The notes beneath the pieces were generated by a model, which was not told where the DNA came from, did not search any database, and saw nothing but the letters and a program-made list of their open reading frames with translations. A program made the translations under genes and the position numbers. Below are positions 1 to 34,476 of a DNA stretch of 44,035 nt, one piece after another. The number at the start of each line of letters is the position of its first letter. Within the stretch, counting starts at the first letter, position 1. The stretch lies in sequence record PZ179884.1. One strand, given 5' to 3'. The DNA is from a phage.

Positions 1-127
1 ATGGGCTTTTTCAAAGTAACTGATGTACCGTCACGTCGCGTAGTCCAGTACGCCCGCGTGTCTGGCTCCGGTGAGAACGTGGTATTTATCGAGGATGAAA
101 GTGTACTCGGCACGCCAGTAGACGATA
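1..127. repeat. Direct repeat identical to 43909-44035 (window wraps a circularly permuted / terminally redundant genome)
   Basis: 127-nt identity between window start and window end by direct reading. Confidence 0.9.
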
Positions 128-459
128 TGCCGTTTGCTGATAAAACCGGTATTGCGCTGCCAGCGGCTGGTATGCTTTATGAAATTCCGTATCTGGCGGA
201 CGCGGGCGACGTGTATTTCTCTGCGCAACCGCAGGATGCTGAACTGGCAGACGGAAGCGCAACTATCACCGTCGAAGTTAAGGCGGGCAAAGCACCATAT
301 ACACTGACATGGTACAAAGACGGTAAGGAAGTGGTAAACGCACCGGAAGAGGCTTTGTCTCTGACGGTTAATGCGGCGGGCGAATACTTCGTTAAAGTCA
401 CCGATGCCGATGGTGTAGAGGCCATCAGTAAAGCGGCGAAGGTCACTAAGCCTGAATGA
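1..459 (+). CDS. Ig-like domain head-associated protein (152 aa); 5' end duplicated at 43909-44035
   Basis: ORF track; I-set-like Ig signature TLTWYKDGKEV...GEYFVKVTDADG; directly downstream of head morphogenesis gene; followed by hairpin terminator. Confidence 0.6.
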   Translation: MGFFKVTDVPSRRVVQYARVSGSGENVVFIEDESVLGTPVDDMPFADKTGIALPAAGMLYEIPYLADAGDVYFSAQPQDAELADGSATITVEVKAGKAPYTLTWYKDGKEVVNAPEEALSLTVNAAGEYFVKVTDADGVEAISKAAKVTKPE

Positions 460-462
460 GAA

Positions 463-493
463 AAGGCCCCATAATGGGGCCTTAGTTTTATTT
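463..493. terminator. Bidirectional rho-independent terminator between convergent genes
   Basis: Stem AAGGCCCC / GGGGCCTT with 5-nt loop, T-run on plus strand and A-run upstream (T-run on minus strand). Confidence 0.7.
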
Positions 494-1009
494 AACTCTC
501 GCCGGCATTAACACCATAAATGCCGTGCTTGAAAATGATATTTTGCATCCTCTGGTTTGGTCCTGGAAATCGAAACGGGCAATTTCATTTTTGTATGCCT
601 TAGAAATCTTGTGCGCGTCTGCCAAATAACGCAGAGTGAACCCTATGCTATCAACTGAACCAGGTGTAATGCGCGCCACGCGTCGCCAGTCAGGAAATCT
701 CCCATCTACAACATCAATCGGAAGTGTGCATATAAGCGCACTACTATCGTCATAGAAAGAAACACTACCGTTGTCGTGGTCTACCTCCGCGTAGTTAAAT
801 TTAGAGGGCTCCCTACCTTTGATGTCTATTAGAACTCCCGTTTCGACGTTTGTTTTCACATTGTCGCAGAACAATCTATGCCCATCCGTAGACACTATCA
901 ATCCTTCAGGGTCTATGTAAAAAGCGTTCAAATAGTAGCGCACATCATTTTTCGCCCTGCAGATTTTCGCCCCTACATACGCAGGGAAAGTAATTACTGT
1001 AGTAACCAT
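488..1009 (-). CDS. Truncated beta sliding clamp (DnaN) homolog: domain II plus a shortened C-terminal segment (173 aa)
   Basis: Motifs DVRYYLN, TDGHRL, VDGRFPDWRRV and C-terminal MPARV match E. coli DnaN DVRYYLNG, ATDGHRLA, VDGRFPDYRRV, MPMRL as recalled from memory; RBS GAGGAG 7 nt upstream of ATG. Confidence 0.6.
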   Translation of the reverse strand: MVTTVITFPAYVGAKICRAKNDVRYYLNAFYIDPEGLIVSTDGHRLFCDNVKTNVETGVLIDIKGREPSKFNYAEVDHDNGSVSFYDDSSALICTLPIDVVDGRFPDWRRVARITPGSVDSIGFTLRYLADAHKISKAYKNEIARFDFQDQTRGCKISFSSTAFMVLMPARVK

Positions 1010-1037
1010 TTTTCATCTCCTCGTTTCGATGTAATGA

Positions 1038-1066
1038 ATAGTACCCTATTATGTTGGTGTCTGCAA
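1038..1066 (-). promoter_or_regulatory. Class B promoter (minus strand: TTGCAG -17- TACTAT) driving the DnaN-like gene
   Basis: -35/-10 hexamers with 17-nt spacer; spacer and flank share ATAATAGGGTACTATTCA with four other loci. Confidence 0.55.
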
Positions 1067-2667: not shown

Positions 2668-3717
2668 ATGGCAATTACCACTATCGGCGATATCGTAACT
2701 GGCAACATCCCGGTCCTGGCGTCTTATATGACCGAGGACCCGGTAGAAAAAACCGCGTTCTTCCAGTCTGGTATTCTGACCCCGACCCCGTACGCTGCCG
2801 AGATTGCCCGCGGCCCGTCCAACGTCGCTAATATTCCTTTCTGGAAAGCGATTGATACCTCTATCGAGCCGAACTACTCGAACGACGTATACCAGGACAT
2901 CGCCACCCCGCGTAACGTGCAGACCGGCGAGATGATGGCGCGCGTTGCGTACCTGAACGAAGGTTTCGGTCAGGCGGATTTGACCGTTGAACTGACCAGC
3001 CAGAACCCGCTGCAATCCGTAGCGTCACGTCTGGATAACTTCTGGCAGCGTCAGGCACAACGCCGTCTGATTGCTACCGCGCTCGGGCTGTACAATGACA
3101 ACGTAGCCGCTACCGACGCATACCACGAGCAGAATGACATGGTAATCGACGTGTCTGCTACTCTGGGCTTCGATGCGGGCGCGTTCATCGACGCTACCCA
3201 GACTATGGGCGATGCTCTGATGGGCAACGGCGGTGAAGTGCTGGGGGCTATCGCGATGCATAGCTTCGTTTATGCGCAGGCACGTAAGCAGCAGCTTATC
3301 GACTTCATCCGTGACGCGGACAACAACACCATGTTCGCCACCTACCAGGGCTACCGCGTGATTGTTGACGACAGCATGACCGTAGTCGGCACTGGCCCGA
3401 CCCGTAAGTTCATCTCCATCATCTTCGGCAACGGCGCTATCGGTTACGGTGAAGGTTCTCCGTCCAACCCGCTGGAATACGAGCGCGAAGCGTCCCGCGG
3501 CAACGGCGGCGGCGTTGAAACCCTGTGGACCCGTAAGACCTGGTTGCTACATCCGTTTGGCTACAGCTTCACCAGCGCGGTAATCACCGGCAACGGCACC
3601 GAGACTGTAGCCCGCTCTGCTTCCTGGCAGGACCTGGCGAATGCCTCCAACTGGAACCGTGTTGTCGACCGTAAGCATGTGCCTATTGCCTTCCTGGTAA
3701 CTGGTGTAGGGTCTTAA
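2668..3717 (+). CDS. Major capsid protein (349 aa)
   Basis: ORF track; position after scaffold; size and composition typical of HK97-fold capsid; strong terminator follows. Confidence 0.7.
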   Translation: MAITTIGDIVTGNIPVLASYMTEDPVEKTAFFQSGILTPTPYAAEIARGPSNVANIPFWKAIDTSIEPNYSNDVYQDIATPRNVQTGEMMARVAYLNEGFGQADLTVELTSQNPLQSVASRLDNFWQRQAQRRLIATALGLYNDNVAATDAYHEQNDMVIDVSATLGFDAGAFIDATQTMGDALMGNGGEVLGAIAMHSFVYAQARKQQLIDFIRDADNNTMFATYQGYRVIVDDSMTVVGTGPTRKFISIIFGNGAIGYGEGSPSNPLEYEREASRGNGGGVETLWTRKTWLLHPFGYSFTSAVITGNGTETVARSASWQDLANASNWNRVVDRKHVPIAFLVTGVGS

Positions 3718-3734
3718 GGTTAAGCTATAATCGA

Positions 3735-3761
3735 GAGGGACTTCGGTCCCTCTTTTCATTT
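3735..3761 (+). terminator. Rho-independent terminator after major capsid gene
   Basis: Stem GAGGGAC / GTCCCTC, loop TTCG, followed by TTTTCATTT. Confidence 0.7.
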
Positions 3762-3778
3762 ACTAAGAGGATTCCTAA

Positions 3779-4120
3779 ATGGCAGACGTATTGAAGCGAC
3801 GCATCACCGGCGTCTCCGCTGACGCCCCGGGCGCTAAGATCGACATGGCGACTATTTCACCTGCGTCTTTCTCTTCCGCGCTGGCGGCTACTACCGCAGT
3901 GACCATAGGTGAAACTATGACGCTGACCGTAACGGTAGCCGGCGGTCTGGAGCCATATTCTTATCAGTGGTACAAGAACAATAACGCTATCGCCGGGGCT
4001 ACCGCGGCTACCTATGCTAAAGCGTCAACCACTACCGCCGATTCTGGTACGTATAAAGTGGTTGTTCACGATGTGTATGGTAATATTATCTCCAGCAGCA
4101 CCGTAGCAACTGTGTCTTAA
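3779..4120 (+). CDS. Ig-like domain protein, likely capsid decoration (113 aa)
   Basis: Ig signature SYQWYKNN...GTYKVVVHD, paralogous to the C-terminus of the 1-459 product. Confidence 0.55.
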   Translation: MADVLKRRITGVSADAPGAKIDMATISPASFSSALAATTAVTIGETMTLTVTVAGGLEPYSYQWYKNNNAIAGATAATYAKASTTTADSGTYKVVVHDVYGNIISSSTVATVS

Positions 4121-4156
4121 TACAACGGCCCTTCGGGGCCGTAATAAGGAAAGGTC

Positions 4157-4336
4157 ATGGCAGATAATTACGTAATCCGCGAAAAGTATACCCACGTTGA
4201 TATCGTTGACGGACAGGTGATGCCTGTTCGCGGTGTGGTAGAAGCGGATGAACTGGTTGCAACCCAACCAGACAATGAAGAAGCGCACAACAACGGCGGT
4301 GGTGCCAAGCGTCGTCGCCGTAAGTCAGAGGAATAA
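4157..4336 (+). CDS. Small basic protein (59 aa), not in ORF track
   Basis: ATG with AAGGAAAGG RBS; C-terminal GGGAKRRRRK; fills gap between flanking genes. Confidence 0.4.
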   Translation: MADNYVIREKYTHVDIVDGQVMPVRGVVEADELVATQPDNEEAHNNGGGAKRRRRKSEE

Positions 4337-4339
4337 TTT

Positions 4340-4852
4340 ATGCCGCTAATCGTGGAAACGGGGGCAATCGTCCCGAATGCTGATTCGTACATCTCACTAG
4401 CGGACGCCCGCGCGTTAGCGGCTAATTATGGCCTTGAACTACCGGCAGACGATACCGCTGCAGAGGTGGCCTTGCGCAACGGTGCTACTTATGTCGGGCT
4501 TGCAGAACCGCAGATGTGCGGTCGTCGTGTATCCGCTGAACAGTCTCTGGCGTATCCTCGCACTGGTGTAACATTGAATGGTTTCCCCGTATCGAACAAC
4601 GTTATCCCGAAACAGGTAATTCTTGCGCAAGTAATCGCTGCGGCTACATACGGTGCTGGTACTGAGGTGAGGGCTAACTCTGACGGTCGTTCCGTGCAGA
4701 CAGAGCGCGTAGAGGGCGCGGTGACAGTGACCTACTTCAACAACGGCAGCAGTGGCGCTACAACCGCGATTACCGCTGCGGACGACGCCTTACGCCCGTT
4801 ACTGTGCGGTGGTCTTAACAATGGCTTCTCGTTTAACGTGTACCGGGGCTGA
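4340..4852 (+). CDS. Head-tail joining region structural protein (170 aa)
   Basis: ORF track; operon position between capsid and tail genes. Confidence 0.45.
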   Translation: MPLIVETGAIVPNADSYISLADARALAANYGLELPADDTAAEVALRNGATYVGLAEPQMCGRRVSAEQSLAYPRTGVTLNGFPVSNNVIPKQVILAQVIAAATYGAGTEVRANSDGRSVQTERVEGAVTVTYFNNGSSGATTAITAADDALRPLLCGGLNNGFSFNVYRG

Positions 4853-4854
4853 AA

Positions 4855-5469
4855 ATGGCGAAGACTAAAACAGAGATGTTTACCCTTATCGGCGCGAACC
4901 TCCCAGATAACACCGCCGGACTTATTACCCCCGCGAAGCTACGCGAGGTAATGACGCAGATGGCCGACTCGCCTATTTACGCCACTCCGGGTGTTAAAGA
5001 GGTTGAAGTTCTCCGCGCTGCGTCTACCGTAATACAAGCGCCAACAGCGACGGACACGGCGTTGCAGTTAACTTTTGGCTCCGCTAAGGGAAGTGCATCT
5101 GACCCGGTAATGATTAATGCCGCCGGGCTGGTTACGTTCAACGCCGCAGGCAACTACGCCGTTCGCATCAAGTTACAAGCTGGCCGCACAGGGGCCAGCG
5201 GTACATCTATCCTGCTATCACGTATTTTAGTAAACGGCGCTCAGTACGGCTCACCCGCCGCCACGAAACTGGTAAGCGCCGACATAACAATCCCGATTGA
5301 ATCCCGCGTCGTTATTAACCCTGCAGCAGGCCAGACGTTTGCCGTTCAGATTATGCGAGATAGCGCAGGGAGCAACTTCGGCGGTGTATATCCGCAAGCG
5401 GCTACAGTAACCTCATGGGGCACAGCGCCGTCAGCGTTATTGGTTATCCCGAGACTGGAGGCCGCGTAA
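4855..5469 (+). CDS. Head-tail joining region structural protein (204 aa)
   Basis: ORF track; tight coupling to flanking genes. Confidence 0.45.
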   Translation: MAKTKTEMFTLIGANLPDNTAGLITPAKLREVMTQMADSPIYATPGVKEVEVLRAASTVIQAPTATDTALQLTFGSAKGSASDPVMINAAGLVTFNAAGNYAVRIKLQAGRTGASGTSILLSRILVNGAQYGSPAATKLVSADITIPIESRVVINPAAGQTFAVQIMRDSAGSNFGGVYPQAATVTSWGTAPSALLVIPRLEAA

Positions 5470-5600
5470 TGCGTAAAATAATTAATATGTGGATTAATTC
5501 TGATTTTTTGTGGAAGTACGAATTTTTGGTATCAGTGTTTGCGCTGGTATCAACAACAGCTCTAATTATATTTTTAGCGGTTTGCGGGGAGTCAACATGA
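5469..5600 (+). CDS. Small hydrophobic peptide (43 aa), AT-rich insert
   Basis: ATG overlaps upstream stop (TAATG); single predicted TM helix; stop overlaps next ATG (ATGA); local AT-richness differs from neighbours. Confidence 0.35.
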   Translation: MRKIINMWINSDFLWKYEFLVSVFALVSTTALIIFLAVCGEST

Positions 5601-8040: not shown

Positions 8041-8063
8041 AGGCCCCGAAAGGGGCCTTTTTT
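8041..8063. terminator. Bidirectional rho-independent terminator
   Basis: Stem AGGCCCC / GGGGCCT with GAAA loop and T6 run; A-run on the other side. Confidence 0.75.
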
Positions 8064-8064
8064 A

Positions 8065-8295
8065 TTACTCATCAATGTTACTCCTGTACTCCCGTAACTT
8101 TTCCAGACTTTCAATTGCTTCCGCTAAGTCGGTTCCGGTGTCCTTGTGTCCACGTAAACCCATGCACAATAGCTTCTTCAATGCGTGCTGTAACGCCGGG
8201 TCGCGGATGTCGAAAGCGCGGAGCACATCATAAACGTCTACTGTCATAGTGCTGCCGTGAGTATTTGTCATTGTGCGGTTGTATTTTGAAGTCAT
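8065..8295 (-). CDS. Hypothetical protein (76 aa), last gene of antisense island
   Basis: ORF track; start overlaps stop of upstream gene. Confidence 0.45.
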   Translation of the reverse strand: MTSKYNRTMTNTHGSTMTVDVYDVLRAFDIRDPALQHALKKLLCMGLRGHKDTGTDLAEAIESLEKLREYRSNIDE

Positions 8296-9422
8296 CCCAG
8301 CATCTCCGGTGAAATAGTTAAACGTGCGACCTCACCATATTCGGCGCTATAAGTAATTACGTTTGCACTACGGCCTGACATCCACCCGCCGCGTGAGGCG
8401 TAGGCATCTTTAGCCGCTAAAGTGCGGTGTTGTTCAACAATCATGTTACGGCTTTCTACAATCTTCTGATGGTGCAGGTGGCCTACGTGGGCGTAGCTGT
8501 AAACACTCTCACCGAACGCTTTGCGGAACTTGGCAATCATAACCGGTTCGATAGCATCGAATCGCGCCTTATGCCCGTGGTGAAAGAACAACGTCGTTTT
8601 TCCGTGTTGCACCATCTTGTAAACATCCGGCGACGTATCGACAATCACTCGGCTGTCGTTCGAATATAAAACTGTGAACATTTCAGCCAGCCATACAGAG
8701 CCTACAGGGTCATGGTTCCCCTGTACGATAAGCAAGCGAACATTTTTATGTTTAACCAGTGCCATATCTACAACACGGCGTACCATACGAATCATGTAGC
8801 GGACGAGTTTCTGGTAGCGAGTGTCTGCGTCCAACACGTGACGCGACTCAGGTGTAACGGCATCCAGACTATCGAAGTGCGCGAAATCACCCAGCAGGTT
8901 AATAACTCCTGTTCCTGCATCCGGTGCTTTCTGAAACGCCGCGTCGAACCAACGAGAGAACAGGTCTTCCGCAATCTTTATATCCCAGTCGTCGCCGCTC
9001 TCGTCGGCCCAGGCAAGCATACCGAGATGGAAATCAGATACCGTGTAAAGATTGAGTAGCTTGTCGTCGCGTTTGGCTCGAGTCGCTTTAGCCGGCGCAA
9101 CTGGCGTAATCTCTGACTTCATGCCTTCAATCACGGCTTTCATCAACTCGACCTGACGTTCAGCGTCGGTGTCTGTCTTAACCCATTGCAACTTAGTATT
9201 GCCGAACTCGTCTACCAGAGACGACGTCCCTTTAATCTTGTAGCCGTCTGGGACAAGGTGGCTAACGTCACGCCCGTGGCCTACACCTTTCTTAGCCAGC
9301 TTCGCTTTACGGATACGAATAACTCGGTCTGAGATGCCGTATTTACGGGCGATGTCTACATTCTTCATCCCGGCGTTCAATTCTTCCTGTAACTGTTCGT
9401 CGGTTATTTTCTTCTGAGCCAT
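8292..9422 (-). CDS. N-terminal HTH domain fused to calcineurin-like metallophosphoesterase (376 aa)
   Basis: HTH-like NVDIARKYGISDRVIRIRK; phosphoesterase motifs SDFHLG, GDFAHFD, GNHD, HHGH, GHLHH in canonical order; RBS GAGGAA. Confidence 0.6.
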   Translation of the reverse strand: MAQKKITDEQLQEELNAGMKNVDIARKYGISDRVIRIRKAKLAKKGVGHGRDVSHLVPDGYKIKGTSSLVDEFGNTKLQWVKTDTDAERQVELMKAVIEGMKSEITPVAPAKATRAKRDDKLLNLYTVSDFHLGMLAWADESGDDWDIKIAEDLFSRWFDAAFQKAPDAGTGVINLLGDFAHFDSLDAVTPESRHVLDADTRYQKLVRYMIRMVRRVVDMALVKHKNVRLLIVQGNHDPVGSVWLAEMFTVLYSNDSRVIVDTSPDVYKMVQHGKTTLFFHHGHKARFDAIEPVMIAKFRKAFGESVYSYAHVGHLHHQKIVESRNMIVEQHRTLAAKDAYASRGGWMSGRSANVITYSAEYGEVARLTISPEMLG

Positions 9423-9487
9423 GCTTACTTCCTCGTGTTTAGGATTTGTCCTATTTAACCACAGTGGATTCCTTTAAATAAAGGCAA

Positions 9488-9814
9488 CTATTTACTTTCT
9501 GCGCCTATCGCCCACCCTGTCATTACCATTTGCAGACGGGTGGCTGTCAGTAGGCTATAGAAAGCATCTCCGTTTTTCTCTACCGAACGTATCACTGTGT
9601 AGGTTACGGCCTGCGGGGGTAGGCCCGATTTACCAACCTCCACGGCGGCCTCACACTCGCGAACTGTAGAGTCCTTGAACGCCTTTACAATAGTAGGGTC
9701 GGCTTTCTCGAGCACACCAGAAGTCATAAGAACAGATTCACTAAATACCTGTTCGCACGGGGCTCCAAAAGTAGCAAAAGACATAAACCCCAGAGCTAAT
9801 ACTAATTTACGCAT
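9488..9814 (-). CDS. Secreted / periplasmic protein (108 aa)
   Basis: N-terminal signal peptide MRKLVLALGFMSFATFGA; RBS GAGGG 8 nt upstream. Confidence 0.5.
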   Translation of the reverse strand: MRKLVLALGFMSFATFGAPCEQVFSESVLMTSGVLEKADPTIVKAFKDSTVRECEAAVEVGKSGLPPQAVTYTVIRSVEKNGDAFYSLLTATRLQMVMTGWAIGAESK

Positions 9815-9842
9815 AATTATACCCTCAGTAAGTTACTGGTGA

Positions 9843-9871
9843 ATAGTACCCTATTATATTGGGGCGCGCAA
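9843..9871 (-). promoter_or_regulatory. Class B promoter (minus strand: TTGCGC -17- TACTAT) driving the antisense island
   Basis: Spacer CCCCAATATAATAGGG is near-identical to the class B promoter at 32856-32884. Confidence 0.55.
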
Positions 9872-23145: not shown

Positions 23146-23273
23146 TCCAGCACCCACATATAAATTGCGATGAACATGCCCAATACGGCAACCATCATGC
23201 CGTATTGACCCTCGTGACAGTAGACACCGGCGGCAAATCCCGCCAGTACCGCGATAATCAGTTTACTTAGCAT
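23142..23273 (-). CDS. Micro-ORF (43 aa), hydrophobic
   Basis: Hydrophobic peptide; start overlaps 3' end of polymerase gene by 11 nt. Confidence 0.2.
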   Translation of the reverse strand: MLSKLIIAVLAGFAAGVYCHEGQYGMMVAVLGMFIAIYMWVLE

Positions 23274-25434
23274 AGCGTTTTAACTCCTGACCTTCCGCTA
23301 CGAGAGGGAACCCCTCCGCCCATTCTGGTAATTCGCACATCAATCGCTCAAGCTCTGCAACATTGTATTCTGGCGTATCTGGTGTTTCGCAGATAATTTC
23401 GTCGTGTACGTGAAGCACAATAGGATAGCCGTTTGCTTCAACGTTCAGCAGTGCATTGGCCAGCAAATCACGGCACAGCGCCTGAGTACAGTTTTCCACG
23501 AGTTTACCAGAGTAGGTGTACTGGAAGCCCCACTGCCTGGTTAACTGATTTTCACCCTGATACTTGATGCGCACGTTAGTAGAAACTTTTCCGTCTTCGT
23601 CTGTCTCTTTTGACACGCTCAACCCGACGCCCGGGTATGACATAACGCGACCTGACGGCAACGTCATGCGCAACCACCAACCAGCGACTTTGTTGCCGTT
23701 GTTGTCTGTTTCTACGTTGCGAGAAAACTTAACCCCGCGAGGGCCAGCGGTGAACTCTTTCCCCGGATTACGGATTGCTGCCATAGCTGCGTCTTCAATA
23801 TCGCGCCAGAATTGGACTATTGCAGGATTAGCTTCCCGGTACATGCGCTTTAAAGCGTCACAGGTGCGCCAAACTTTCTTATCAAGGATATATGAGGGTC
23901 GGTCATCTTTTTCACCAGGACGTGGTGGTCGCTTGGCTTCCTGAATACGCGCCCATTCGTATCCGCGTGCGGTAGCGGCCCAAATATGGTCCGGGAATGT
24001 ACCGTCTAAAGTGTTAGTCATGTCATTCAAATCAAGACCTAAGTTTTTAGCAAACGTGACGAAAGCACCGACGCCCCCCGCGTAGCCGAGTCCCAGAACC
24101 ATTGCTTTGGCTATTTGTCTTTGGTCCTTTGTTACGGCTTCATATGCAACATTGAACACCGTTGATGCGAGTTTCTTATACACATCAACCCCGTTTACAA
24201 ATACTTCGATTAAATCGTCTTCACCCGCCAGCCACGCAAGACCGCGGCCTTCGACGTTAGAGTAATCGGCAACGACAAACTTATGCCCTGCTTCCGGTAT
24301 GATGCAGCTACGAACGGTCGATGCCGTTAGCTTGGCCACATCGAAACGGCGATGGGCGCGACCCTTAAGTAACGCCGAAATGCCTTTATCCAGCTCATCA
24401 TCGTGATAGTAACCGCGTGCCAGGTTCTGCGGCTGAAATCCTTTACCGGCAAATCGTAATGTACGCTTGGCTCCGCCGTACTGAATGCAACCACGACGGC
24501 GGTCGTCCGACGAGCGCCCTAACAGCAGCGGGTTATATTTCGTTGACGCTGTGGACGCGGCCCCGAGGCGCATTTCGATAATCGTGCGTGCGTCGTCCGG
24601 TAAATCATCATCCGCCAACAGGTCGTTAAGCGTAGACTTCTGCGCGTTGTGGATGCGGTGCGCTGGTGCAAGTTCACGCAGAATCGGCAGGAAGTCTTTA
24701 CCAGTAAGCGAGCCGCCGTATTTACGTTGAGCTTCTTCCTGTAGCTGGGCCTTGTGTTTTTCCACGGCTTCAATCGCGGCTTCCGCCAGCGTCACATCAA
24801 CCTTAAACCCACGGTCGTTAATCAACTGGTCCATTTCCAGTACACGGTCTTCGAACTCGGAGTTACCCCAACGCGGCAGCTTATGGAAGACTTCACGCAT
24901 CGCAGTGATGTCGCTCACGGCGTACCTGATGAACATCGCCCACTCGTCAGGGTGAGTTTCTGCGGTGTAGCGGCGGATTTTGTAGTTCTTCGGCGTCGGT
25001 TTAGAGAAACGCTTAATCAGAGCCTTGCCGCGTTTATCTTTCGCGTTGTCTGCAGACACGCCCAGCACTTCGCACAGCGCATCGAGTGACCCCGGCAGCG
25101 CGTGACGAAACGCCAAAATCATCGTATCAATGGTGTTGCTTACGGGAATATCAAAGCCCCAGCAGTGTTTCATGATGAGCCTGTCGAACATTGAGCCGTT
25201 GTGCCACACCATCTTAATACGACTGTTCGGCTTAACCAGGCGGCGCAGTGCGCGGTGCAAATCACCCGGCATGTCGTTGCCGTCGGTGCAATCCCATACC
25301 CGCACAGGCTCGTCGTCAAAAGCATATGTGCAGATAAGCACTTCGGTAGTCGGGTGTTCGGCGTAAGCGTAGGAGCCGACTTTCTTTAAATCGGCTTCGG
25401 AGAATGTTTCAAAGTCCAGGTATAAGTAGCTCAT
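23263..25434 (-). CDS. Family A DNA polymerase with 3'-5' exonuclease domain
   Basis: Exo I YLDFETFS; motif A DYSNVEGR; motif B KAMVLGLGYAGG; motif C HVHDEI; ATG at 25434 with RBS (track start 25488 is TTG). Confidence 0.8.
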   Translation of the reverse strand: MSYLYLDFETFSEADLKKVGSYAYAEHPTTEVLICTYAFDDEPVRVWDCTDGNDMPGDLHRALRRLVKPNSRIKMVWHNGSMFDRLIMKHCWGFDIPVSNTIDTMILAFRHALPGSLDALCEVLGVSADNAKDKRGKALIKRFSKPTPKNYKIRRYTAETHPDEWAMFIRYAVSDITAMREVFHKLPRWGNSEFEDRVLEMDQLINDRGFKVDVTLAEAAIEAVEKHKAQLQEEAQRKYGGSLTGKDFLPILRELAPAHRIHNAQKSTLNDLLADDDLPDDARTIIEMRLGAASTASTKYNPLLLGRSSDDRRRGCIQYGGAKRTLRFAGKGFQPQNLARGYYHDDELDKGISALLKGRAHRRFDVAKLTASTVRSCIIPEAGHKFVVADYSNVEGRGLAWLAGEDDLIEVFVNGVDVYKKLASTVFNVAYEAVTKDQRQIAKAMVLGLGYAGGVGAFVTFAKNLGLDLNDMTNTLDGTFPDHIWAATARGYEWARIQEAKRPPRPGEKDDRPSYILDKKVWRTCDALKRMYREANPAIVQFWRDIEDAAMAAIRNPGKEFTAGPRGVKFSRNVETDNNGNKVAGWWLRMTLPSGRVMSYPGVGLSVSKETDEDGKVSTNVRIKYQGENQLTRQWGFQYTYSGKLVENCTQALCRDLLANALLNVEANGYPIVLHVHDEIICETPDTPEYNVAELERLMCELPEWAEGFPLVAEGQELKRYAK

Positions 25435-25586
25435 TTCTTTTTCCTTAAATCCAGTGCCTTCGTTTCGCTGAGTCTTATTTTCATACAATCACGGCAAATC
25501 CACACATGCCTGTACCCGGCGCGGTACTCATCCGCGTACCACGGAAGCGGTTTCATATATCGGTATACGTGCTTACAGAAAAACAT
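25431..25586 (-). CDS. Small Cys/His-rich protein (51 aa), not in ORF track
   Basis: Translated by hand; stop overlaps polymerase ATG (ATGA). Confidence 0.25.
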   Translation of the reverse strand: MFFCKHVYRYMKPLPWYADEYRAGYRHVWICRDCMKIRLSETKALDLRKKK

Positions 25587-29224: not shown

Positions 29225-29253
29225 ACTATAATAGCGAACTATTCACATGTCAA
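29225..29253 (-). promoter_or_regulatory. Class A promoter (minus strand: TTGACA -17- TATAGT)
   Basis: Consensus -35; spacer TGTGAATAGTTCGCTAT. Confidence 0.6.
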
Positions 29254-29257
29254 TGGG

Positions 29258-29286
29258 CTTTTCTAAAATAATTAATATGGTACTAT
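29258..29286 (+). promoter_or_regulatory. Divergent plus-strand promoter-like element with TACTAT -10 and weak -35
   Basis: Shares TACTATTCAC with class B; -35 region overlaps the minus-strand class A -35. Confidence 0.3.
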
Positions 29287-29317
29287 TCACATATCAACTG
29301 ACTAAGGAGTAATTGAC

Positions 29318-32790: not shown

Positions 32791-32855
32791 ACCAAGTAAT
32801 AAGAATAAAGGCACAACCCTCCCCGAAGAATCACAACGGCAACGTAACTATTCTC

Positions 32856-32884
32856 TTGCACACCCCAATATAATAGGATACTAT
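32856..32884 (+). promoter_or_regulatory. Class B promoter (TTGCAC -17- TACTAT) for the early-right operon
   Basis: Spacer ACCCCAATATAATAGGA; downstream TCACTTATCGAAACGAG leader motif. Confidence 0.6.
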
Positions 32885-32918
32885 TCACTTATCGAAACGA
32901 GACAGAGGAGTGGTGGTT

Positions 32919-34058: not shown

Positions 34059-34476
34059 CAAAAACGAAGTATTCGAGTACCTGATTGACCAACTACGGCA
34101 GCAGGTGAACAACAGCCCGTACAAGCAACAGTGCGAAGACCTGGCGCACGAGGTGTTGTCACTCAAGAATCAGTTACGTGATGCTTCGGCGCAGATTAAG
34201 GAGTTGCATCTGGCTCTGGCCCAAGCTACGGGTGACGTGGAGGCGTATAAACTTATCCGCAAAGGTGGGTACGTTTCCGCGGGCCAGCGCTACGTGGTTG
34301 GCGAACATGCGCCCGGGCCAACGGTAAATTGTCGGTGCACACAGACGCCTGTACCGCCGGAGCAATCTGGTTGCCGTAAGGAAGATACGCAGGAGTGCCG
34401 CCACGACTTTGAATACATATACCCTGAAAGCGGGGTGCACCGTCATTGTATTAAATGTGGATGGATAACCGAATGA
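34051..34476 (+). CDS. Early protein (141 aa) with C-terminal Cys/His cluster
   Basis: ORF track; C-terminal CRC...C...C...H...CIKCG suggests zinc binding. Confidence 0.45.
   Translation: MSNKNEVFEYLIDQLRQQVNNSPYKQQCEDLAHEVLSLKNQLRDASAQIKELHLALAQATGDVEAYKLIRKGGYVSAGQRYVVGEHAPGPTVNCRCTQTPVPPEQSGCRKEDTQECRHDFEYIYPESGVHRHCIKCGWITE

Follow-up and report, generated by a model that had tools for sequence, protein, structure and literature searches.

A truncated relative of the DnaN sliding clamp, carried as an antisense cassette in the head module of a Kagunavirus

Short clamp homologues in phages and the gene described here

What is already known of the small clamp relatives that phages carry? 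In 2011 Kazlauskas and Venclovas reported five short phage homologues of polIII-β, which they described as the 'second and third domains', and they linked a raised pI to clamp homologues that lack loaders (PMC3201878). The GenBank record of the Burkholderia myovirus Bcep781 enters its gp15 as a 'DNA Pol III b subunit fragment'. Gp04c of phage fBC-Eco01, a relative of the protein described here, has been presented uncritically as a processivity clamp (PMC9825357), and the gene is annotated in 20 or more Kagunavirus records under the labels 'DNA polymerase III sliding clamp', 'DNA polymerase III beta subunit' and 'beta clamp domain-containing protein', the annotated relatives being up to 96% identical in protein. 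Our literature search brought up such genome notes, the 2011 survey and the Bcep781 record, but no functional study of the family. The BASEL paper does not mention the gene, and the text on the temporal transcriptome of the related phage vB_Eco_K1B4 (PMC12645636) gives no per-gene values for it. The entity and its DnaN ancestry are already known, and our protein is one more member of the family; the suggestion in the original prediction that the gene was new to descriptions of this phage group does not hold. What we add is the precise make-up of the protein (domain II and one half of domain III), which refines the wording of 2011; the loss of all ring-forming elements together with the selective conservation of the peptide-binding pocket; a swappable cassette with a shared promoter motif; and the recurrence of an antisense position in the head modules of several lineages.

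The window, by which we mean the whole stretch of 44,035 bp analysed (PZ179884.1), is a complete, circularly permuted genome of Kagunavirus (Guernseyvirinae). Publications on members of this genus describe them as lytic. Its first 3 kb are 95% identical to Escherichia phage vB_EcoS_XY2 and 91–93% identical to many other coliphages. The replication genes all lie on the minus strand, and the polymerase among them is of family A, as had been predicted. The gene of interest, which we call the mini-clamp gene, runs antisense between the Ig-like head decoration gene (1–459, plus strand) and the spanin, scaffold and major capsid genes.

488–1009, minus strand: coding sequence of the truncated β-clamp homologue (mini-clamp), 173 residues, comprising domain II of DnaN and the C-terminal half of its domain III
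1017–1020, minus strand: ribosome-binding site GGAG, 7 nt 5' of the ATG, by direct reading; also a cassette boundary common to relatives with other cargo
23263–25488, minus strand: family A DNA polymerase (PolA)
Further replication genes, minus strand: Enc34-type SSB, DUF2800 PD-(D/E)XK nuclease, AAA_25 primase-helicase, SNF2 helicase and C5 methylase

How widespread is the family? The protein matches phrog_3007 over its full length (residues 13–172, E 1.1e-36), falls within 170–260 residues and has no fused domain, as do the members of the PHROG 3007 group. A database clustered at 90% holds 121 homologues, mostly of 170–225 residues. At E ≤ 1e-30 there are 353 clusters at 50% identity, nearly all of them stand-alone proteins of 170–260 residues matched from end to end, and BFVD contains many phage structures of the same shape (TM 0.8–0.87). 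Members from Bcep781, Dhillonvirus and Jerseyvirus are 29–44% identical to ours. The longer members (210–225 residues; for example P0060, P0065, P0085, P0097 and P0119) carry after the MPxR motif, and so beyond the strand that forms the pocket, a conserved C-terminal tail, VAHPGLPAWA, that the protein of the window lacks; it is conceivable that this tail folds back onto the pocket or acts as a peptide for binding partners.

Parts of the clamp kept and lost

Is the mini-clamp a true relative of DnaN? The original prediction said so from short motifs, every one of which is present in the 173-residue minus-strand frame, and asked for profile and structure comparisons, both of which now give significant similarity. 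Searched against PDB sequences with phmmer, the protein matches E. coli β (E 1.8e-6), and a profile of 45 family members aligns with E. coli DnaN at an hhalign probability of 99.6% (E 1e-24). The AlphaFold2 model made on that alignment has a pLDDT of 95.6 and a pTM of 0.90, and its best 50 Foldseek matches in the PDB are all β clamps. The motifs NDVRYYLN, TDGHR, VDGRFPDWRRV, YLxDA and MPxR are invariant or at least 90% conserved in the 45-member alignment. The only Pfam match is to PF02767, below threshold at 16.6 bits against 27, and TIGR00663 scores 17.4 bits, far below its cutoff of 137.65. We conclude that the mini-clamp is DnaN-like beyond reasonable doubt. Comparison of the gene with two relatives gives a dN/dS of 0.08–0.15, which indicates purifying selection.

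PHROG 3007 itself bears the label 'RusA-like Holliday junction resolvase' (as at 4965–5501 of locus L005 and 2992–3501 of locus L009), an annotation error that automated pipelines have propagated into many genomes, including many annotated with Pharokka. This label is the one point in favour of a resolvase. The mini-clamp has no RusA match in Pfam or NCBIfam, its sequence and predicted fold are those of a β clamp, and the predicted fold refutes the resolvase identity, to which we give practically no credence. In hundreds of genomes the gene now passes for a working sliding clamp or for a RusA resolvase, and either name is misleading.

How much of a clamp is left? By hhalign, residues 13–118 correspond to DnaN 141–254 (domain II) and residues 119–172 to DnaN 314–366, the second β-α-β3 unit of domain III, while domain I and DnaN 255–313 have no counterpart. 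The model consists of three β-α-β3 units, with long helices at 8–17 and 126–138 only; the middle unit (59–100) is without an inner helix, a loss seen in this subfamily, so that not every unit supplies a helix to line a DNA channel. Since only domain II and half of domain III align, and three units are modelled, the protein amounts to one and a half domains and not the two-domain fragment first proposed. It falls well short of a three-domain clamp of about 366 residues that passes the TIGR00663 and Pfam thresholds.

In β, domain I meets the part of domain III around I272/L273 to make the head-to-tail interface, and the mutation I272A/L273A renders β monomeric (PMC11139829). The mini-clamp has neither domain I nor the strand with I272/L273. 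With domain I, half of domain III and the interface gone, it is no standard DNA-encircling clamp, and it cannot form the β2 ring. The original prediction had also suggested that it poisons host clamp dimers. As a β fragment it might do so, since fragments can in principle compete for interfaces, but a poison subunit that heterodimerizes with host β and breaks the ring needs the very two regions that are missing, and this reading is left unsupported; we regard it as most improbable.

Could the protein instead build a genuine sliding clamp of unusual composition? Four copies of three β-α-β3 units would supply the 12 units of a β2 ring, with half-domains pairing across subunits. This arithmetic fits, relatives annotate the gene as a sliding clamp, and E. 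coli β*, the C-terminal two-thirds of β, reportedly acts as one. On the other hand, the protein has none of the native interface elements, its middle unit is without a helix on the inside, and the model of the monomer is already compact and confident. A Pfam scan of nine replication-region and island proteins of the window found no clamp loader, nor does the annotation of the relative XY2 list one, and close relatives do without the gene. An oligomeric ring is therefore, in our estimate, very unlikely.

If the ring is lost, what has been kept? To compare the pockets we took the pocket residues listed in a review (PMC11139829). By computational mapping, 15 of 17 are identical to those of E. coli β, or 15 of 18 with V344, which was mapped by hand: R152, L155, T172, G174, H175, R176, L177, P242, R246, V247, Y323, V360, M362, P363 and R365. 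The only differences are at N320 (T), V344 (T) and M364 (A). The mini-clamp thus combines the clamp fold with a conserved pocket for clamp-binding motifs, subsites I and II included. Across the family, whose members are only 25–30% identical overall, the mean frequency of the commonest residue is 0.84 in the pocket and 0.40 elsewhere (Mann–Whitney p 9e-9), and pocket residues make up 13 of the 25 most conserved columns (hypergeometric p 7e-10). From this pattern we infer that the family has been selected for peptide binding and not for ring formation, and this is our main argument.

Because the pocket is its most conserved part, capture or titration of clamp-binding peptides is the mechanism best supported for the protein. 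The suggestion in the original prediction that it titrates clamp-binding host proteins fits this strong conservation, although the binding as such is predicted from sequence. One caution applies: part of the conservation could reflect structural inheritance from DnaN.

Whose peptides might be bound? A search of the window proteome turned up no canonical clamp-binding motif in the polymerase, the SSB, the nuclease, the primase-helicase, the SNF2 helicase or the methylase of the phage, nor was there one in homologous PolA, SSB, nuclease and primase-helicase proteins. Since no such motif turned up in the phage replication proteins and the gene is dispensable in the genus, host ligands and an accessory role in host manipulation or counter-defence are favoured over a place in the core replisome. 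Several other candidates were rejected. Matches in tail proteins and in a 90-residue arginine-rich antisense frame (34174–34446) look like chance hits or a spurious frame. QVLLF in the MuF-like head protein is conserved in Guernseyvirinae alone; the MuF proteins of other phages with a mini-clamp lack it. Neighbours of the gene in other phages, the ParB-HTH protein of swi2 and ZCKp20p and the Nmad5 of 'rolling', have no clamp-binding motif at their termini.

An antisense cassette with exchangeable cargo

How is the gene delimited from the head operon around it? The original prediction of a self-contained cassette of promoter, gene and terminator, lying antisense in the head module, holds. Its elements and their relatives elsewhere in the genome are as follows.

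463–483, both strands: bidirectional intrinsic-terminator hairpin AAGGCCCC-ATA-GGGGCCTT, with T-rich tails to about 453 and about 493
1036–1066, minus strand: 'class B' promoter-like motif, TTGCAG (1066–1061)-N17-TACTAT (1043–1038), with a conserved 22-nt core at 1036–1057
9841–9862, minus strand: sister copy of the class B core, an exact 22-nt match, heading a second antisense island in the tail module
32865–32886, plus strand: sister copy of the class B core with 1 mismatch, heading a rightward operon of small genes (from 32910, plus strand) and adjoining a divergent control region
1119–1134, no strand: perfect 16-bp palindrome AACTATTCGAATAGTT in the shared control region, located by a repeat finder
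8292–9422, minus strand: Mre11/SbcD-like nuclease (metallophosphatase), phrog_704 'DNA repair exonuclease', E 1e-162

The hairpin has a 9-bp stem and scores as an intrinsic terminator on both strands, in agreement with the bidirectional terminator (463–493) first proposed; the record of phage Schulenburg annotates it as two terminators. It serves both the decoration gene on the plus strand and the mini-clamp gene on the minus strand, and it forms the other boundary of the cassette.

The promoter (1038–1066) fares less simply. The 22-nt core, CCAAYATAATAGGRTACTATTC, occurs three times in the genome with at most 1 mismatch, where none is expected, and a looser fourth copy lies at 33.9 kb. The leader between core and ribosome-binding site is also similar among the copies, and each of the 4–5 copies that can be aligned stands 5' of a ribosome-binding site and a start codon. 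In relatives the core is kept whatever cargo follows it. The class B element is thus a real repeated motif, and this part of the original prediction stands. But 'class B' is no standard term, and the match to the sigma-70 consensus is weak (only 7 of 12 positions, and a promoter scan did not report the motif); its promoter activity and timing are putative.

Two classes of promoter-like sequence can be told apart: TTGACA-N17-TATAGT with GAATAGT in the spacer, found 5' of the replication genes, and the class B motif. GAATAGT, the half-site of the palindrome at 1119–1134, occurs 11 times against 4.6 expected, mostly in promoter-like regions, and it overlaps the -10-like hexamer of the mini-clamp promoter motif (1036–1042); the related AAACTATT overlaps its -35-like end (1065–1072). 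Sites of GAATAGT or promoter motifs lie at 1036–1134, 1876, 9841, 26345, 29238–29288, 32847–32886 and 33903. This distribution suggests that GAATAGT is a shared half-site to which a regulator binds, and the palindrome is a candidate operator with a putative regulatory role. The Mre11/SbcD-like nuclease lies in the second antisense island (about 8050–9870, minus strand), inside the tail module, and this island is probably co-regulated with the mini-clamp gene, as its copy of the core suggests.

The intergenic block from the mini-clamp gene to the i-spanin gene (1025–1380) is 95–99% identical in about 173 of 181 records of phages whose hosts are E. coli, Salmonella and Raoultella; for the genes on either side the identity is only 80–93%. 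It contains divergent promoter motifs, the palindrome at 1119–1134 abutting TTGACT(1133)-N17-TAAGCT; a GC-rich stretch of about 200 nt with a 36-residue frame; and a hairpin terminator at 1342–1361. Its RNA fold has a z-score of -1.9. Rfam gives no match for the window, nor for this block even at E ≤ 1. Possible roles of the block are those of a leader for the late operon, an element for antitermination or a small RNA.

Is the gene a fixed part of the genus? This version of it is found in 23 Kagunavirus records at a nucleotide identity of at least 80%. In 20 relatives (Bas70–72, Bas74, 590B and others) the flanks are about 96% identical and an unrelated 67-residue frame sits between exactly the same hairpin and ribosome-binding site. 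Golestan has frames of 114 (phrog_13472) and 33 residues in the slot, and RP180 has yet another frame.

L003, 989–1192, minus strand: alternative cargo
L019, 1044–1486, minus strand: alternative cargo
L020, 1242–1577, minus strand: alternative cargo

This slot, which runs from the decoration-gene terminator to the class B motif, is thus a hot spot for cargo, and the alternative cargo has no assigned function. Neither the mini-clamp nor the alternative cargo has a match in PADLOC. Judged by this variation, the mini-clamp is an accessory gene, dispensable within the genus. Terminator, repeated promoter motif and variable presence together make a moron-like cassette, although the sigma-70 match of its putative promoter is weak.

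The antisense position recurs in other lineages. In the Burkholderia myovirus Bcep781 gp15 lies antisense in the head module. A Jerseyvirus homologue does so too, with a better promoter (TTGACT-17-TATGCT) and a bidirectional hairpin. Swiduovirus and Webervirus likewise have it antisense among the head genes, where it shares a small operon with the gene of a ParB-HTH protein. One of the carriers of such an operon, Klebsiella phage vB_Kpn_ZCKp20p, has a gene for a TnpB-family RNA-guided endonuclease among its minor capsid genes (275–1405 of locus L004), a few kb from the mini-clamp operon.

In the Dhillonvirus 'rolling' the homologue is again antisense in the head module, directly 3' of Nmad5 (PF18757), which is reported to trigger the defence system Tmn (PMC11846954); that paper makes no mention of an adjacent clamp gene. 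Here (3147–4511 of locus L006) the homologue is bracketed by identical hairpins, GGGGCCATCACGGCCCC, at 3919–3935 and 4495–4511, as if a cassette had been inserted along with a duplicated terminator. This neighbourhood bears on the possibility that the mini-clamp is an anti-defence or anti-toxin decoy, mimicking the host clamp to absorb a host immune effector or toxin that works through a clamp-binding motif, or to hide a trigger linked to replication. The copy directly after Nmad5, between identical hairpins, and the variable slot of promoter and terminator with alternative small cargo, a typical counter-defence pattern, speak for such a decoy. PADLOC models do not match it, however, and among the defence effectors known from E. 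coli we identified none that carries a clamp-binding motif. Moreover, of the BASEL Kagunaviruses without the gene (Bas70–72, Bas74 and Bas76) some plate on K-12 and others require the prophage-cured host; since they fall in both plating groups, no phenotype correlates with the gene. We consider such an anti-defence decoy rather improbable.

Other homologues lie in same-strand settings. In podovirus-like metagenomic phages the homologue is near the start of an operon running from a divergent intergenic region, among small unannotated genes, and in a Serratia prophage it heads an operon of DUF2800 nuclease, SSB, PolA and methylase. Many carriers encode PolA. The T1-like carrier swi2 encodes no DNA polymerase, and the occurrence of the family therefore does not depend on a polymerase of the phage.

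Might the mini-clamp then be a replication accessory after all? As a non-ring adaptor in the manner of UL42 it would bind DNA or the phage replisome, and its pocket would recruit a clamp-binding enzyme to clamp-free phage DNA: host Pol I, ligase or Pol III core, or else a protein of the phage whose motif is non-canonical. The Serratia operon, the PolA/DUF5906/DUF2800 modules of many carrier genomes and the class B motif shared with the DNA-repair nuclease island are consistent with this role, and so would be the T1-like phages, which rely on Pol III of the host. The pI points the same way: it is 7.65 in the mini-clamp and ranges over 5.3–9.0 in the family (median 7.7), raised above the 5.25 of E. 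coli β, a property associated with clamp homologues that lack loaders (PMC3201878). Yet a pI of 7.65 is neutral and not basic, and one DNA-facing inner helix is lost; no phage replication protein has a canonical clamp-binding motif; and relatives about 96% identical in the flanks, the part compared, do without the gene. An adaptor seems to us unlikely, though less so than the other alternatives.

A possible clamp mimic and its comparison with known systems

What, then, does the protein do? Probably it is a soluble mimic of the clamp and not a clamp, as its lost and conserved parts suggest. Our preferred reading, held tentatively and with somewhat less than even confidence, is that it is an accessory host-manipulation protein that would capture host clamp-binding motifs as a stand-alone pocket. 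It would be a clamp derivative, predicted to be monomeric, that has been pared to the smallest contiguous block still able to form the peptide-binding pocket. Its own promoter, with a motif common to the small-gene operon and the nuclease island, and the bidirectional terminator would give it a transcription unit of its own that runs antisense to the head operon around it. The soluble mimic would capture QL[SD]LF-type motifs of host proteins and so divert or sequester them from the host clamp. Candidate targets are Pol III α, ε and δ, Hda, Pol II, IV and V, MutS and MutL, or a clamp-targeting toxin or defence factor. The gene would serve host manipulation and not core replication.

A more specific form of this capture reading is possible, though we lean against it: that the monomeric mimic is deployed early and sequesters the motifs of host replication, repair or regulatory proteins (the δ wrench, Hda or Pol III α, for example) or of a clamp-targeting toxin or defence effector.

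Some observations run against capture. T1-like carriers such as swi2 depend on host Pol III, and a general sponge for Pol III or the clamp loader would harm them. Such carriers fit poorly with a mimic that soaks up Pol III in general, and therefore the ligands may differ by lineage or may be non-essential partners of the clamp. The Serratia PolA operon and the many carriers with PolA fit a replication accessory as well, and the pI of the family is shifted towards that of non-ring, DNA-binding clamp homologues (PMC3201878).

If capture is correct, clamp mimicry would be a class of host takeover or counter-defence not yet demonstrated, and the family is widespread, with hundreds of sequence clusters in siphoviruses, podoviruses and myoviruses. 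The mini-clamp would also offer a natural small, monomeric and soluble β-clamp pocket for screens of clamp-targeting antibiotics, and a genetic tool for titrating clamp-binding proteins in vivo.

How does the mini-clamp compare with the systems already described? From DnaN (E. coli β; PF00712/PF02767/PF02768, TIGR00663) it differs in its length of 173 residues against 366, in lacking domain I, the N-terminal half of domain III, the dimer interface and one inner helix, and in its higher pI. E. coli β* is closer, a natural N-terminal truncation that is likewise without domain I and keeps the pocket; this UV-inducible internal-start product (domains II–III), which Skaliter, Paz-Elizur and Livneh are said to have described in 1996, reportedly acts as a clamp. 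However, β* keeps the whole of domain III, whereas the mini-clamp has lost half of it and belongs to a separate gene family.

Among viral processivity factors, UL42 of HSV, UL44 of HCMV and BMRF1 of EBV consist of two complete domains, bind DNA through a strongly basic face and work with a polymerase that is known. The mini-clamp shares the clamp fold, but it has one and a half domains and a neutral pI, only mildly raised over that of β, and no polymerase motif was identified for it, the PolA of the window included.

As for the cassette, it resembles phage morons in its own promoter-like element and terminator, its antisense position between late genes and the alternative cargo of relatives. 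By the classical definition, on the other hand, morons are prophage-expressed genes of temperate phages, and the mini-clamp belongs to a genus for which publications report lytic members.

From the short phage polIII-β homologues there is no essential difference. Bcep781 gp15, the five short forms of 2011, PHROG 3007 and the 'beta clamp domain-containing protein' of phage Ivi are the same family, with the same stand-alone architecture of 170–230 residues and, in several lineages, the same antisense place in the head module.

MuC of phage Mu, which carries clamp-binding motifs (PMC12867686), and Gp168 of phage Twort, seen bound to β (PDB 7evp), belong to the same network of clamp pocket and clamp-binding motif. 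Those proteins are ligands or plugs of the host clamp, whereas the mini-clamp is the inverse, a copy of the receptor pocket. If our reading holds, phages would copy the receptor side of the clamp hub as well, where the ligand-side strategy of MuC and the plug-type strategy of Gp168 alone have been shown so far.
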